DNA of 64,000 nt, taken from assembly GCF_030384885.1 (NCBI RefSeq), contig NZ_CP128613.1. One strand, 5' to 3'. Below are positions 58,113-64,000 of the stretch, one piece after another; position 1 is the stretch's first letter, and each line of letters begins with the position of its first letter. The notes under the pieces are model-generated. The model had not been told where the DNA came from and made no database searches. It was given only the letters and a program-made list of their open reading frames with translations. The position numbers and the translations under genes are program-made. This DNA is from Escherichia coli. GTDB taxonomy: Bacteria; Pseudomonadota; Gammaproteobacteria; Enterobacterales; Enterobacteriaceae.

Positions 58113-58144
58113 GGTGCGCATAATGTCAACGCGTTATGTTGAAA
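58113..58144. other. Hybrid dif-like Xer site: consensus XerC arm GGTGCGCATAA + extended centre TGTCAACGCG + degenerate XerD arm TTATGTTGAAA; left prophage junction
   Basis: 11/11 match to the E. coli dif XerC arm 77 bp after hipA (where dif lies in E. coli), then divergence from dif (TGTATA-TTATGTTAAAT). Confidence 0.6.
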
Positions 58145-58146
58145 AG

Positions 58147-58182
58147 GCCGCTGCGAAAATCGAATCCCGCAGCGGCCTCTTT
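58147..58182. terminator. Strong hairpin (GGCCGCTGCG-loop-CGCAGCGGCC) flanked by T-runs on both strands; probable terminator of the minus-strand cargo operon
   Basis: 10-bp perfect GC-rich stem; downstream of the 309-aa gene on the minus strand. Confidence 0.5.
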
Positions 58183-58210
58183 AGCATAACGTCATTGTGC
58201 GAACCAATAG

Positions 58211-59140
58211 CTACTTTTTCGTATAACTCTCTTCGCATTTAGCCAAAAACAGCAGATTAGTAGCGGTTAAATGAAGGGTATAACTCGCTAAATACTCAGG
58301 AACTTTTGTTATTTCTGCCCCTTGTCCATGTCCACCTTCTTTATTTCGAATGGTTGGAATACCACTCTCAAGTAGAATTCTTATTGAAGAAAATTGATTC
58401 TGGAGGTATTCAGGTACTAAATTATTTGCCAAACAACTGTTAATTAGTTTTTTAGCTGTGTCAGTATCATTAAATTGCCAAGAATGTTTTTTATGTATGG
58501 CTTTCATTAGACTTTCAAAAGATTTGAGGCAATCATTTAAACATTCTTTATATCGCTGATGTCTATAATGCTCATGGGCGGATAAAAACTCATCGTTTGC
58601 TCCGTTATAACTCTTGTTCTTACCAAGAATCTGAAGCGTAGGCTTTACAACATCAGAATGAATGAATTGTGAGTCAACTTTAACCAACTCTCCTGACTCA
58701 AATTGATATCCAAGACCTGCTTCTTTAAACCTGATATTAAGTTCTTCAATAGCATCATCAGGACTTTGCTTTACTAACCCTCTGAATTTCCACTCATTTG
58801 ATCTTATATACCCGTCTATCAGTTTGAAACATATCTCAATGATATCCAAGCATTTTTCATGATCTCTCTCAGCTAGGAAATAGTCAAAAATTGCCCCGAA
58901 ATTCGATTCAGGATACTGTTTGAGAGAGAATACACCATATTCCTTACACAGCGTTTTATGAACGAGTCTGTAAAGCTTACTTGCTTCCGTTTCATAGTCA
59001 CTATCTTCACCGATAGTATCTCTTACAATATGAACAACCTGAACACGAAATGCATTTGGTATATTCGTGTATTGGTAAACATCAGCTACTTCACCTCTTA
59101 ATTTTTTTTGTCTTTTTGAAAATAATTCGAATATAGCCAA
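58211..59140 (-). CDS. Prophage cargo protein, 309 aa: N-terminal Abi-associated-like domain + C-terminal HEPN-like domain (Rx5H motif RNKEGGH); TTG start
   Basis: Long ORF with AGGA RBS 7 nt before TTG; C-terminal helical region carrying IRNKEGGHGQ matches the HEPN Rx4-6H signature; not a known filamentous-phage core gene. Confidence 0.55.
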   Translation of the reverse strand: MAIFELFSKRQKKLRGEVADVYQYTNIPNAFRVQVVHIVRDTIGEDSDYETEASKLYRLVHKTLCKEYGVFSLKQYPESNFGAIFDYFLAERDHEKCLDIIEICFKLIDGYIRSNEWKFRGLVKQSPDDAIEELNIRFKEAGLGYQFESGELVKVDSQFIHSDVVKPTLQILGKNKSYNGANDEFLSAHEHYRHQRYKECLNDCLKSFESLMKAIHKKHSWQFNDTDTAKKLINSCLANNLVPEYLQNQFSSIRILLESGIPTIRNKEGGHGQGAEITKVPEYLASYTLHLTATNLLFLAKCEESYTKK

Positions 59141-59223
59141 TTTATAATCCTCAAAGATATGCCATTAATATGTCTGAGTTGATGAAAATCACACCGCTTT
59201 TACAGTCGTTTTCCACGGTGGAG

Positions 59224-59646
59224 TTACCAGTAATATGAGTTTCTTCTGTGCCACCAATAAAGAAGTCCGTATCCAATGATAAGAATTCCGAAAAACATCA
59301 ACGACATTCCCCAGCCAGTTCCGTACCACGAAACCATATCATCGAAAACTAACCCACCCATTTCACGAACTCCGGCTGCTTCCTTAAGAATTGGTTTGAA
59401 TACCGGAATCAGAAGGGCGATCGCAAGTGGAGCACCCCAGCGAACAAGACCAGTTTCCATTTTGATCCCGAAAAAGATCCCCGCACCGACAACAAGCAAC
59501 CAGACTATCAGGCCAGGCGCAGTTTCTAGTGCTGTTTGCCATTCAACATCGAAAGTTTTCATTAGCCAGGCAACAACTGCCAGACAGAAAGCAAATACGC
59601 CTACAACAACCAGTTCAACGCCGCTTGTTTCGTTATTTCTACTCAT
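59224..59646 (-). CDS. Prophage cargo small inner-membrane protein (about 140 aa, 4 predicted TM helices)
   Basis: Start chosen at internal ATG (MSRNNETSG...) with AAAGGATCAAAAGG RBS; the longer 189-aa reading would overlap the upstream gene; four hydrophobic segments. Confidence 0.5.
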   Translation of the reverse strand: MSRNNETSGVELVVVGVFAFCLAVVAWLMKTFDVEWQTALETAPGLIVWLLVVGAGIFFGIKMETGLVRWGAPLAIALLIPVFKPILKEAAGVREMGGLVFDDMVSWYGTGWGMSLMFFGILIIGYGLLYWWHRRNSYYW

Positions 59647-59734
59647 CCTTTTGATCCTTTGTTGCTGTTCAAAATCCGCACAATAAAGAACGTGCAGTGT
59701 AGGTAATACTGCACGTTTGTACCATTCGTGGTAC

Positions 59735-61652: not shown

Positions 61653-61671
61653 CCTTAATGGAGTTATTCCT

Positions 61672-61914
61672 ATGAAAATTCTGTCTACTGTTAAATATAA
61701 AGTTGCTCTGGCTTCAACTGCGCTTTTTATTTCTGCAAGTTCTTTTGCGGCTGAAGGCGCTACAGGTGGTACTGATTATGCAGGCCAGGCAATGGATGCT
61801 TTGTTGACTCAGGCAAATGATCTCATTGGTAAAGTATGGCCTGTTGTTGTGGCTGTGGTTGGCGCTGGGCTTGCCATTCGTATTTTCAAAAAATTCTCTT
61901 CAAAAGCGGTTTGA
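61672..61914 (+). CDS. Major coat protein gpVIII-like (80-aa precursor with signal peptide)
   Basis: Signal peptide ending SFAAEG, acidic N-terminus, hydrophobic core, basic C-terminus [12 protein letters not shown] (compare Ff KLFKKFTSKAS). Confidence 0.88.
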
Positions 61915-61923
61915 ATTTCACTC

Positions 61924-61947
61924 AGGGGCACTCGTTGCCCCTTTATT
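61924..61947 (+). terminator. Rho-independent terminator after gVIII (GGGGCA-loop-TGCCCC then TTTATT)
   Basis: Hairpin plus T-run directly after the major coat gene, as in Ff phages. Confidence 0.6.
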
Positions 61948-61960
61948 AAAGCGGGTTACT

Positions 61961-63211
61961 ATGAAAAGGAAAATATTAATTCTTTCCGCTGTCCTCATTT
62001 CTCCTTTTTCACATGCTGAGTCATGGGAAAGCATTACTAAATCCACTTATCAAAGTTCTGCCTATGCTGAAAGTAAGCAAATAACCAATCAGGATGGCTC
62101 TAAGATAACGGTTTACTATATTGATGCTGCTATGCAGGCCTCCGCTTGTCAGGGTGCTAAATCCAGTGCTCAGAGTGTATTTACTCGGATTAAACCAACT
62201 TATGAGGGTATCTGGCCTGATTCTGAATTCCGTCTTGTTTTTACTGGCGATTGTACTTACAGCGATTCACCAGGGCAGAAGGATAAATATTGGTCTTTAA
62301 CGGCTTATATTGTTGGTAATATTCAGCGTTCTGTTCCTGATGAAAAACCTACTGACCCGACACCAGAAGAAATTTGTGAAGCGAAGCCGCCAGAAGAAGG
62401 TGTATTTAATAATGTTGATTCATATGATGGTGGTCGCTATATCTACTATAACGGCTGTGAATATGAGGCTACTGGTGTCATTGTTTGTCAGGGTGATGGT
62501 ACTGTTTGCGCTGCAACATGGAAGCCTACAGGTGCTGTAGCTGACCCCTCTGATAAACCCTCAACCCCCCAAAATGGTGGTGGTGAGTCTGGCGGTGGTG
62601 AGTCCGGCGGTGGTGAGTCCGGTGGTGGTGAGTCTGGCGGTGGTGAGTCCGGTGGCGGTAGTTCTGGCGGTGGCTCTAGTGGTTCCAGTCTTTCTAAAGG
62701 TGATATTCAGTCTGCGATCGAAGGTGCTTCACCCAAAATAGCCAGCGATATTCATGATAAATTAACGGAGAAAGACACTTCATCAGATGATAAAAAAAAT
62801 GCCGATGAACAAACCAGGAATAATATAAATCGTCTTGACGATTCCATTAACAATCTTACGCGGGGGGCTGGCCGTTTTGCTGACCCTTCAGGTGGTGATT
62901 CTCGTTATGGAAAGGGCGACTCTGAATTAGATGGCGCTTCTACTTTAGCTGATTCTGAATTGGGAATTGAAAAGGATTCTCACGGTGCTTTATGGGAAGC
63001 ATTTTTAAATAAAGGTGCTATGCTGCCTAATTTACCCAATGGTAACGGCTGCTCTGATTTTATTATTTTTCCCGGAGAGGTTTATCAGATTGATATTGGT
63101 TGCGATAAATTACTGACTATTAAAGATGTTCTTTCATGGGTTTTTTATTGCCTTACGTTCTGGTATGTCTTTACTTCTTTAACTTCATTGCTTCGCAAAG
63201 GGGGTGAGTGA
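61961..63211 (+). CDS. Adsorption protein gpIII-like (416 aa): signal peptide, N-terminal receptor domain, TolA-binding N1-like domain, Gly-rich linker, C-terminal anchor domain
   Basis: [19 protein letters not shown] signal; [23 protein letters not shown] resembles Ff N1 (GCLWNATGVVVCTGDETQCYGTW); GGGES x5 linker; C-terminus IDIGCDKL...[17 protein letters not shown] resembles Ff g3p C-terminus. Confidence 0.85.
62576..62689 (+). repeat. Tandem 15-nt repeats (GGTGGTGAGTCYGGY) encoding the (GGGES)5[13 protein letters not shown] linker of gpIII
   Basis: Five consecutive near-identical 15-mers read directly from the sequence. Confidence 0.8.
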
Positions 63212-63552
63212 TGCCTTTATTATTAGGTATTCCTGCATTGTTGCGTTTTCTTATTGGTCTTGTTCCTTTGTTTATTGGCTATGTGGCGAGTTTTTTAGCT
63301 CGACTTGCTACCAGAACAGGATTAATTGCCTTTGCATTGGTCGCATTAATTACAACAACTGTTACGCTTTTAATGCAGTACCTTGCTGAGGTCATGTATA
63401 ACGGTTTACCTGCTGATTTCTCCCATTTAATGGCGTCTGTATTGCCTGACCATTTTCAGGCGTGTGTTAACGTTATTATGGTTACTCGTATCAGTGTTTT
63501 TGTTTTCGATTTAAAACAAAAATTTCTTGATTATGCAAACAGGGTGATTTAA
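63211..63552 (+). CDS. Minor coat protein gpVI-like (113 aa)
   Basis: [17 protein letters not shown]... resembles Ff gpVI (MPVLLGIPLLLRFLGFL...; ...FDVKQKI vs FDLKQKF); ATG overlaps the gIII stop (TGATG). Confidence 0.85.
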   Translation: MPLLLGIPALLRFLIGLVPLFIGYVASFLARLATRTGLIAFALVALITTTVTLLMQYLAEVMYNGLPADFSHLMASVLPDHFQACVNVIMVTRISVFVFDLKQKFLDYANRVI

Positions 63553-64000
63553 ATGGCGGTTTATGTAGTAACAGGCAAATTAGGCTCAGGCAAGACACTT
63601 GTTAGTGTTTCCAGAATACAGGAAAGACTTGCTAAGGGTTGTCCTGTTGCCACTAATCTTGATCTTAAATTGCATAATATGCCTATGGTTGGGCGTTATG
63701 CGAAAAAAACGCGCGTTATTCGCATTCCTGACAAACCTTCATTAAATGATTTACTTGCTATTGGTACTGGGAATACATCTTACGATGAATCCCGTAATGG
63801 CCTCCTTGTACTTGATGAATGTGGTACTTGGTTTAATTCCCGCTCATGGGGTGATAAAGACAGGCAACCTGTTATTGACTGGTTTTTACATGCCAGAAAA
63901 TTAGGCTGGGATATTATATTTTTGATTCAGGATATTTCGATAATGGATAAGCAAGCTCGTCTGGCGCTTGCTGAGCATGTTGTTTATTGTCGCCGTTCAG
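63553..64000 (+). CDS. Assembly ATPase gpI-like (Zot family), N-terminal 149 codons; continues beyond window
   Basis: MAVYVVTGKLGSGKTLVSV... with Walker A GKLGSGKT and strong similarity to Ff gpI as recalled (LLVLDECGTWFN, DWFLHARKLGWDIIFL, AEHVVYCRR). Confidence 0.9.
   Translation, partial: MAVYVVTGKLGSGKTLVSVSRIQERLAKGCPVATNLDLKLHNMPMVGRYAKKTRVIRIPDKPSLNDLLAIGTGNTSYDESRNGLLVLDECGTWFNSRSWGDKDRQPVIDWFLHARKLGWDIIFLIQDISIMDKQARLALAEHVVYCRRS

Follow-up and report, generated by a model that had tools for sequence, protein, structure and literature searches.

The UPΦ viruses (UPΦ901; Shapiro & Putonti, Virus Evolution 2020) are described as having about 50% identity to IKe and I2-2, with gII and gV in common with YpfΦ, a copy of dif at the start of the genome and tandem copies at dif (PMC7307601). 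The same account lists variation of the GGGES repeats of g3p, strain-variable reverse-strand open reading frames (ORFs) beside dif and, as a trait of the group, two specific ORFs, h1 and h2, after gIV. CUS-1/YpfΦ is a dif-integrating inovirus of Escherichia coli and Yersinia pestis, with CUS-1, from E. coli O18:K1:H7, reported to be 99% identical to YpfΦ (PMC4266046), and the attP of both phages has been classed as CTX-type (PMC4246890). In addition, hypervariable, defence-bearing regions were published in 2025 for the dif-integrating inoviruses of Vibrio (PMC12715192). Here, we analyze a stretch of 64,000 nucleotides of E. coli contig NZ_CP128613.1 (the window, to which positions refer unless a locus is named), whose last 5.9 kb were given in a preliminary description as a filamentous prophage integrated at dif beside hipA. 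We find that 58113-64000 very probably represents the left-hand 5.9 kb of a filamentous prophage of UPΦ type inserted at dif; this phage group and its integration route were already described in 2020 (PMC7307601).

The assignment to UPΦ is carried by near-identity to a named prophage of the group, that of ECONIH2 (CP014667), which matches 58111-64000 at 98.6% identity apart from one accessory (cargo) gene and does so at three places in its record; ECONIH2 is presented as a UPΦ tandem triple in a case study (PMC7307601). The core, in Ff order, is homologous to that of I2-2/IKe, eight proteins showing 41 to 81% amino acid identity to those of Lineavirus I2-2, so the Ff/IKe type proposed in the preliminary description stands. 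Megablast of the prophage against a phage collection gave no match, and matches at the protein level were to I2-2 only. As in UPΦ, gII and gV are common to YpfΦ and the other genes are not, the 80% nucleotide identity being confined to 60088-61475. Overall, the prophage is a mosaic of I2-2/IKe-like virion and assembly genes, a YpfΦ-like gII-gV segment and a CTXΦ-like attachment hairpin. Its replication module, made up of gII/gX/gV and the origin hairpin, has counterparts in both I2-2 and YpfΦ, the latter being the closer.

The preliminary description had called the element CTXΦ/CUS-1-like, and of this the CTX-type lifestyle holds, while the phage is not CUS-1/YpfΦ itself. The window phage lacks the approximately 99% nucleotide identity over the 7.1-kb CUS-1/YpfΦ core, and against the YpfΦ of Y. 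pestis NCTC5923, which was retrieved by a scan for the inner hairpin of attP, it matches only in the attP hairpin (85%), the origin region (87%) and gII-gV (80% nucleotide identity). It is instead NC-Ino, from E. coli NC101, that has this core, with 99.4% identity to YpfΦ over 7366 bp, and CUS-1 is placed on the same NC-Ino/YpfΦ backbone because it is reported to be 99% identical to YpfΦ. An identity of the UM146-type prophage with CUS-1 is likewise rejected; YpfΦ matches the NC-Ino backbone (99.4%), not that of the window.

All core genes are intact plus-strand ORFs, with gI cut by the window end, and match inovirus families (Table 1; family calls are to PHROG/NCBIfam inovirus families and amino acid identities are to the I2-2 counterparts). 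The genes gII, gX, gV, gVII, gIX, gVIII, gIII, gVI and gI, which the preliminary description had listed in canonical Ff order, are all present. That this block follows the insertion site was also correct as to order and site, yet it does not do so immediately: about 2 kb (58127-60086) lie between, taken up by the attP hairpin, by three genes on the minus strand and by a candidate origin. The ATG of gX is Met261 of a 364-amino-acid ORF, is preceded by a GGGAG Shine-Dalgarno sequence and aligns with the annotated start of I2-2 gene X (GRIEM). The gIX ATG overlaps the gVII stop (ATGA), and this gene is unannotated in the RefSeq relatives, which annotate gV as a DNA-binding protein. Within gIII, the GGGES-repeat linker of g3p occupies 62575-62673 as a 15-nt tandem repeat of 6.6 copies, and the length of the gene ranges from 1218 to 1317 nt among relatives. 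The full gI has 364 amino acids in the relative locus L001.

Table 1. Features of the UPΦ-type prophage and its left-hand chromosomal landmark, with window positions and supporting matches
Feature	Position	Strand	Evidence or description
hipA, left-hand chromosomal landmark, outside phage	56714..58036	+	HipA annotation in 99.4%-identical locus L001
attP(+) forked hairpin	58111..58208	+	site 1 (58113-58144) pairs with inverted site 2 (58179-58205)
attL, hybrid dif/attP left junction	58113..58144	+	XerC arm GGTGCGCATAA, 10-nt spacer TGTCAACGCG, XerD-like arm TTATGTTGAAA
Variable cargo cassette	58209..59223		unrelated genes in relatives; sharp edges at 58208 and 59224
Cargo gene, 309-aa STM4504/CBY_0614 family protein	58211..59140	-	AbiJ_NTD4 N-terminus, HEPN-fold C-terminus (DUF7014/Abi_C)
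Gene for 140-aa hydrophobic, multi-pass membrane protein	59224..59646	-	phrog_4174, 4.9e-85
Candidate (+)-strand replication origin hairpin	59689..59717	+	AACGTGCAGT-gtaggtaat-ACTGCACGTT, perfect 10-bp inverted repeat
Gene for 60-aa candidate regulator or immunity protein, repressor slot	59735..59917	-	phrog_2503; divergent from gII
Divergent control region, candidate operators	59918..60086		three direct repeats of TGAACTCA
gII, replication initiator/nickase, 350 aa, GTG start	60087-61139	+	TIGR01629 rep_II_X 2e-76; phrog_702; 55.8% aa identity
gX, in-frame internal start in gII, 104 aa	60825-61139	+	phrog_17464 covers residues 261-360
gV, single-stranded DNA-binding protein, 105 aa	61151-61468	+	phrog_1547; 41% aa identity
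gVII, minor coat protein, 28 aa	61471-61557	+	phrog_19107; 70% aa identity
gIX, minor coat protein, 31 aa	61557-61652	+	phrog_28333; 53% aa identity
gVIII, major coat protein, 80 aa	61672-61914	+	phrog_1646, 5.8e-33; 53% aa identity
gIII, attachment protein, 416 aa	61961-63211	+	phrog_4150, 1.5e-270; 52% aa identity
gVI, minor coat protein, 113 aa	63211-63552	+	phrog_1944; 53% aa identity
gI, assembly ATPase (Zot family), first 149 codons	63553..64000	+	phrog_1675, 1.2e-92; 81% aa identity

The prophage sits where dif is found in other E. coli. The site begins 77 nt after the hipA stop (last base 58036), and in MG1655 a perfect dif begins 77 nt past hipA in the same orientation, which bears out the location given in the preliminary description. 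Its statement that the first 11 bp equal the XerC arm is likewise borne out: GGTGCGCATAA at 58113-58123, which occurs once in the window, is the XerC-binding arm of E. coli dif, and the identity reaches 14 nt (GGTGCGCATAATGT, the XerC arm plus TGT). Where intact dif reads GGTGCGCATAA-TGTATA-TTATGTTAAAT, the window reads GGTGCGCATAA-TGTCAACGCG-TTATGTTGAAA, with 9 of 11 positions of the XerD-like arm in agreement with dif. No full-length dif is present in the window at up to three mismatches, as expected because the left junction is a hybrid. Judging from the aligned sequences, the crossover point would lie somewhere in 58113-58126, with phage-only DNA from 58127. We accept insertion at dif because both position and context match the MG1655 site.

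The remainder of the element can be followed in relatives. In the closest complete genome, E. coli Res13-Lact-PEB17-18 (99.4% identity over 57900-64000), the full unit of 8,575 bp adds the rest of gI, the secretin gene gIV and two small ORFs, and two tandem copies are followed by a perfect dif and then by fim/yde genes. Its left junction runs from chromosome through GGTGCGCATAATGT into phage, the copy-to-copy junction (locus L002) from phage end through the same site into phage, and the right end from phage end through GGTGCGCATAATGT into ATATTATGTTAAAT; once aligned, these three junctions read as the classic Xer pattern. The same order of hipA, hybrid site, one or more prophages and perfect dif is observed in every relative examined, so the gIV and regenerated dif that had been placed beyond the window are both seen there. 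An insertion at chromosomal dif as expected of CTX-type elements is documented on its left side by the hybrid junction in the window and on its right side only by relatives. To the right of the window we would expect GGTGCGCATAATGTCAACGCG..., that is, a further copy, or a perfect dif. An integrase is absent from the window ORFs (ORF list, PHROG/NCBIfam) and is not annotated in the complete units of relatives, as in CTX-type phages, and neither XafT/DUF3653 nor a recombinase was found in the cargo, 140-, 60-, 102- and 77-amino-acid proteins; the last two are the h1 and h2 ORFs after gIV in relatives. Together with the hybrid site, the far-end dif and the two-site hairpin described below, this supports the Xer-dependent, CTXΦ-like lifestyle put forward in the preliminary description. 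In E. coli C10 (locus L012, 2967-6498), a truncated hipA is followed by three unrelated hypothetical genes and then by the UPΦ prophage; these extra genes may represent another dif-integrated element upstream.

The phage DNA at the junction contains a second, inverted dif-like site. Its reverse complement reads GGTTCGCACAA-TGACG-TTATGCTAAAG, an inner GC-rich stem-loop (58146-58177) separates it from site 1, and the top strand carries a 5-nt bulge, TCAAC. As single-stranded DNA, 58111-58208 is predicted to fold at -32.7 kcal/mol (z = -7.8), with none of 200 shuffles folding equally well, and the predicted hairpin opposes XerC and XerD arms across a short central region with the bulge. Two inverted dif-like sites in a forked, bulged hairpin, here taken from the predicted fold, are the CTX-type arrangement. 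In duplex form the spacers are 10-11 bp at site 1 and 5 bp at site 2, and because these are non-canonical neither site appears usable by the normal Xer route. The arms are conserved in 35 loci (E. coli, Y. pestis, Pectobacterium and IMG/VR contigs), which were gathered with the 32-nt inner hairpin as a probe, so that the inner stem is fixed by the search pattern. Site 2 with both arms is present in every probe-matched locus, across several host genera. The bulge/spacer takes at least seven variants among the 35 loci, and TGT beside the XerC arm, the only dif homology that XerC-mediated exchange needs, is kept in all of them. We also observe that the inner stem-loop is followed by TTTT on the minus strand and could double as a terminator of the leftward cargo genes. 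Contigs of Candidatus Nanosynbacter and Ruminococcaceae metagenome-assembled genomes (loci L013 and L017) contain this enterobacterial phage hairpin as well, probably as mis-binned phage or Enterobacteriaceae DNA.

By analogy with CTXΦ, the packaged (+) single strand would fold its two inverted dif-like sites into the forked hairpin, setting one XerC arm and one XerD arm at normal spacing. Host XerC would then swap one strand pair with dif through the TGT homology, and replication would resolve the junction and complete integration. Phage genes and the XerC-cleaved top strand of dif lie on one strand, which agrees with insertion of the (+) strand. The hybrid site next to hipA would then be dead, whereas dif would be intact at the other end, so that chromosome dimer resolution would be kept. 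The duplex prophage would have no usable site and could not excise; for that reason new phage DNA is expected to come from rolling-circle replication driven by gpII, which would run between the origins of neighbouring copies in a tandem array.

A search of the relevant intergenic DNA for the Ff nick motif, CTTTAATA, gave no match in either I2-2 or the window phage, and the origin call is therefore based on a conserved hairpin. This candidate hairpin (fold z = -5.2) is conserved in the I2-2 intergenic region and in NC-Ino/YpfΦ, and a second small hairpin follows at 59719-59734; we infer that the former is the gpII origin. The 140-amino-acid membrane-protein gene to its left is kept in most UPΦ and YpfΦ-type elements and is annotated as hypothetical in relatives. 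On the other side lies the repressor slot, which holds a 148-amino-acid helix-turn-helix protein in YpfΦ-type phages. For the 60-amino-acid protein of the window phage, a sequence search of the PDB gave no match; its structural model has an extended N-terminus and two helices, a topology compatible with ribbon-helix-helix proteins (best fold-search E = 1.3, not significant). A Pfam search with the 140-, 60-, 102- and 77-amino-acid proteins gave no match. Between the 60-amino-acid gene and gII, the three TGAACTCA repeats at 59961-59972, 59985-59996 and 60032-60043 are putative operators. The promoter scan showed no enrichment over shuffles and gave one plausible leftward promoter-like site (minus strand, 59978-59951), and an Rfam search of 56000-64000 returned nothing.

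Copies of the element are uncommon and usually multiple. The UPΦ core is present in 56 of 5,426 complete E. coli genomes (approximately 1%) and the YpfΦ-type core in 118 (approximately 2%). Among the 56 UPΦ carriers the median is 2 places per genome, and the arrays of relatives hold 2 to 6 copies, some of them broken by insertion sequence (IS) elements. In the second tandem copy of Res13-Lact-PEB17-18 (L002, 13943-14975), a deletion across the gVI-gI junction has left gVI at 336 nt and replaced the 1095-nt gI by a "hypothetical" ORF of 705 nt, and copies in one array are therefore not always identical. A long near-perfect DNA hairpin (z = -6.8) lies just past gIV at L002 8073-8121, at the position of the I2-2 morphogenetic (packaging) signal and with 69% identity to that I2-2 region. 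In E. coli EC5502 (locus L010, NZ_CP092647, 20000-60000) we observe at least five tandem UPΦ copies beside hipA with many frameshifted genes, and the record as a whole matches at 15 places; the array may truly be this long, or the copies may be noise of a long-read assembly to which reads of the replicative form have added. Finally, NZ_CP128883.1 (9,565 bp, E. coli TUM14759) is a YpfΦ-type phage genome present as a separate small replicon, probably an episomal replicative form.

Taken together, a CTX-type UPΦ prophage at dif with a swappable attP-to-origin cassette is the explanation that we consider best and hold with considerable confidence. A chance match of the 11-mer, with phage genes unrelated to dif, has practically no probability left and is already refuted. 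The exact 11-mer does have a chance expectation of 0.10 per window and appears at least once in 8 of 100 shuffled windows, which makes it weak evidence for dif when taken alone, so that the context decides; the identity with dif runs over 14 nt, however, at the MG1655 position of dif, and the same junction with a perfect dif at the far end is found in every relative examined. The main rival for the mechanism, in which a double-stranded replicative form integrates reversibly through the single 32-bp site 1, as in VGJΦ, and the inverted repeat is only a transcription terminator of the cargo operon, is also quite improbable. Site 1 does have recognizable XerC (11/11) and XerD (9/11) arms, the inner GC stem-loop with its T's on the minus strand resembles a terminator for leftward genes, and a double-stranded reaction would give the same fixed orientation and regenerated dif. 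Its spacer of 10-11 bp, however, is longer than that of dif (6 bp) and that of the 29-bp VGJΦ attP (7 bp; PMC4246890), and the conservation of an inverted second site, both arms included, across the probe-matched loci is more than a terminator would call for. Tandem arrays are moreover the rule, and the attP of the related YpfΦ/CUS-1 has been assigned to the CTX type (PMC4246890). The window phage thus does not have the single duplex attP with a 6-8 bp center of the VGJ type. As the accessory ORFs tested include nothing like the XafT/DUF3653 activator of the TLC type, that route is unlikely as well.

Whether the copy in the window is productive is a separate matter. It could be a remnant, truncated or mutated beyond the window, or a lone copy unable to make phage DNA, which we regard as unlikely. 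The window stops inside gI, defective relatives exist (SCU-484 without gII-gVIII, the IS-broken copies and the second copy with the gVI-gI deletion), and a lone copy would be silent under a CTX-type model. Yet all eight complete genes and the visible start of gI are intact and 99% identical to complete units, carrier genomes have a median of two places, and UPΦ DNA has been reported by PCR in DNase-treated supernatants of four lysogens (PMC7307601). Several points do weigh against the CTX-type explanation with its swappable cassette. Only relatives with 98-99% identity show the right half of the prophage, how many copies there are and the regenerated dif, and XerC dependence and single-strand integration of UPΦ are proposed by analogy. 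The hairpin arms are nearly invariant, so that covariation lends the predicted fold no support, and the origin is assigned from conservation and the clustering of breakpoints only. Superinfecting YpfΦ genomes are reported to insert between copies at an imperfect site (PMC4266046), which the simple CTX model does not predict. In the model of the cargo protein, the catalytic (motif) loop has a pLDDT below 50. Cargo swaps bounded at 58208 and 59224 are not explained by origin-to-origin replication and need another recombination route.

The cargo gene, absent from the ECONIH2 match, accounts for the defence cargo that the preliminary description had thought possible: an AbiJ-like HEPN gene is indeed present, and a defence role is plausible as a prediction. 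The protein matches Pfam PF18863 AbiJ_NTD4 (8.6e-27) at its N-terminus and DUF7014, and its C-terminal HEPN fold carries an Rx4-6H motif, here Rx5H. More than 3,000 homologues were found, and R265, N266 and H271 are invariant. Among PADLOC families it has only a weak match, to the candidate family PDC-S32; a literature search under that name yielded no paper, and a PDB sequence search with the protein gave nothing useful. Judging from fold and motif, the gene is most likely an abortive-infection-type defence or addiction gene.

The cargo varies strongly among relatives. Beyond the cassette of Table 1, the replaced stretch extends to about 59662 in some of them, and the attP-to-origin segment falls into at least 12 size classes among loci. 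Alternative cargos include a hypothetical protein with the ECs_2282 zinc-binding protein, DUF6953 with a PD-(D/E)XK nuclease, and a Doc-family toxin, with further combinations in other relatives, and several of them match PADLOC candidate families. The cargo gene of the window is 100% identical in 17 genomes. Two of these are confirmed on the UPΦ backbone, NC101 and SCU-484 are confirmed on a YpfΦ-type backbone, and most of the remaining genomes are also among the YpfΦ-type core matches. In E. coli SCU-484 (locus L008, 11001-17721), the dif-borne YpfΦ-type prophage no longer has the genes from gII to gVIII but still has the repressor, the membrane-protein gene and the STM4504 cargo gene, so that a dead phage has kept its cargo.

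Recombination between the two backbones appears to be bounded by the origin. Window 58000-59745 matches NC-Ino at 98.3% identity, the match ending beside the origin hairpin. On the opposite side of that hairpin lie the breakpoints of KFu015 (59662) and of YpfΦ versus NC-Ino, which are 99.4% identical from the origin onward, so that mosaic breakpoints cluster at 59662-59745. The UM146 prophage combines a UPΦ core from the origin onward (98.5%) with an attP-to-origin module that matches the YpfΦ-type element downstream (96.7%), with an overlap of 80 bp between these matches at the origin. By analogy with CTXΦ, this make-up is the product expected if replication begins at one origin and stops at the following one. 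Such origin-to-origin products have reportedly been shown for CTXΦ by Davis & Waldor in 2000. This proposed replication route would also account for the behaviour of the attP-to-origin segment, with its cargo and membrane-protein genes, as a cassette swappable between UPΦ and YpfΦ backbones. A natural setting for it is seen in E. coli FDAARGOS_1257 (NZ_CP069480; L034 4106-35954, L035 1-21461), where hipA is followed by two UPΦ and four YpfΦ-type copies and a perfect dif. No such co-integration is reported in PMC7307601, where only one UPΦ/YpfΦ co-infection was found, and not within one array.

We give about an even chance to the broader proposal that 58209 to approximately 59690 is a defence-gene cassette moving between UPΦ and YpfΦ/CUS-1/NC-Ino, otherwise unrelated dif-integrating inovirus lineages of Enterobacterales, through origin-to-origin replication in mixed dif arrays. 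If true, the filamentous prophages of the terminus would be common ground on which genes of the Abi/HEPN, nuclease and Doc types are shuffled. The cassette concept is not new, since the hypervariable regions of Vibrio phages are already published (PMC12715192). For UPΦ, the Results and Discussion passages of PMC7307601 consulted make no statement on a two-site hairpin, the origin hairpin as a recombination boundary or cassette sharing with YpfΦ.

Farther left, and outside the phage, a 1,822-amino-acid ORF (50765-56233) lies upstream of hipBA; in relatives, its annotation is that of an autotransporter of the ECSE_1600 family.

In sum, the observation of the preliminary description is confirmed and its interpretation supported; the element belongs to a phage group that has been described, and RefSeq contains near-identical copies of it. 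These prophages occupy the chromosome dimer resolution site, and the accessory genes that they carry are variable. Modest additions are the two-site hairpin, the origin-bounded cassette common to both lineages, the natural mixed dif array and the HEPN cargo protein, which may be of interest to work on Xer-exploiting elements and prophage-borne defence genes. None of them alters what has been established for CTXΦ and, in later work, for the inoviruses of Vibrio.

Compared with its nearest described relative, the window phage differs from UPΦ901 in having the AbiJ_NTD4-HEPN gene in place of other accessory ORFs (PMC7307601). YpfΦ, CUS-1 and NC-Ino resemble it in dif integration, in the same attP hairpin (85-99% identity), in the origin hairpin, in tandem arrays and in the layout of attP, cargo, origin, repressor and core, and NC-Ino even has the same STM4504 cargo (100%) and membrane-protein gene, with 98.3% identity over 1.75 kb. 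Their structural and assembly genes, in contrast, are unrelated to those of the window phage at the DNA level, and a 148-amino-acid helix-turn-helix repressor stands where the window phage has its 60-amino-acid protein. I2-2 and IKe (Lineavirus) share the gII-gX-gV-gVII-gIX-gVIII-gIII-gVI-gI-gIV order; the origin hairpin is conserved in I2-2, and the hairpin after gIV matches the position of the I2-2 morphogenetic signal. Unlike the window phage, both are episomal and have no dif-like site, repressor-slot gene or cargo, the gIV-gII region being purely intergenic.

The dif-integrating inoviruses of Vibrio have in their hypervariable regions (pHVRs) a comparable accessory slot, adjacent to att and repressor and filled with defence-type genes including Abi; there the slot co-occurs with xafT, whereas no XafT-like protein was found in the UPΦ accessory ORFs tested (PMC12715192). 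CTXΦ of Vibrio cholerae has unrelated core genes; the window phage encodes its own secretin (gIV, as seen in relatives), and the hairpin has about 98 nt here versus about 150 nt in CTXΦ, from which the mechanism is taken by analogy. The likeness between the two lies in the attachment and replication systems, namely, two inverted dif-like sites predicted to form a forked, bulged hairpin in the (+) strand, dif homology on the XerC side only, regeneration of dif at one end and tandem arrays, both as seen in UPΦ relatives, and the hybrid genomes expected from origin-to-origin replication.

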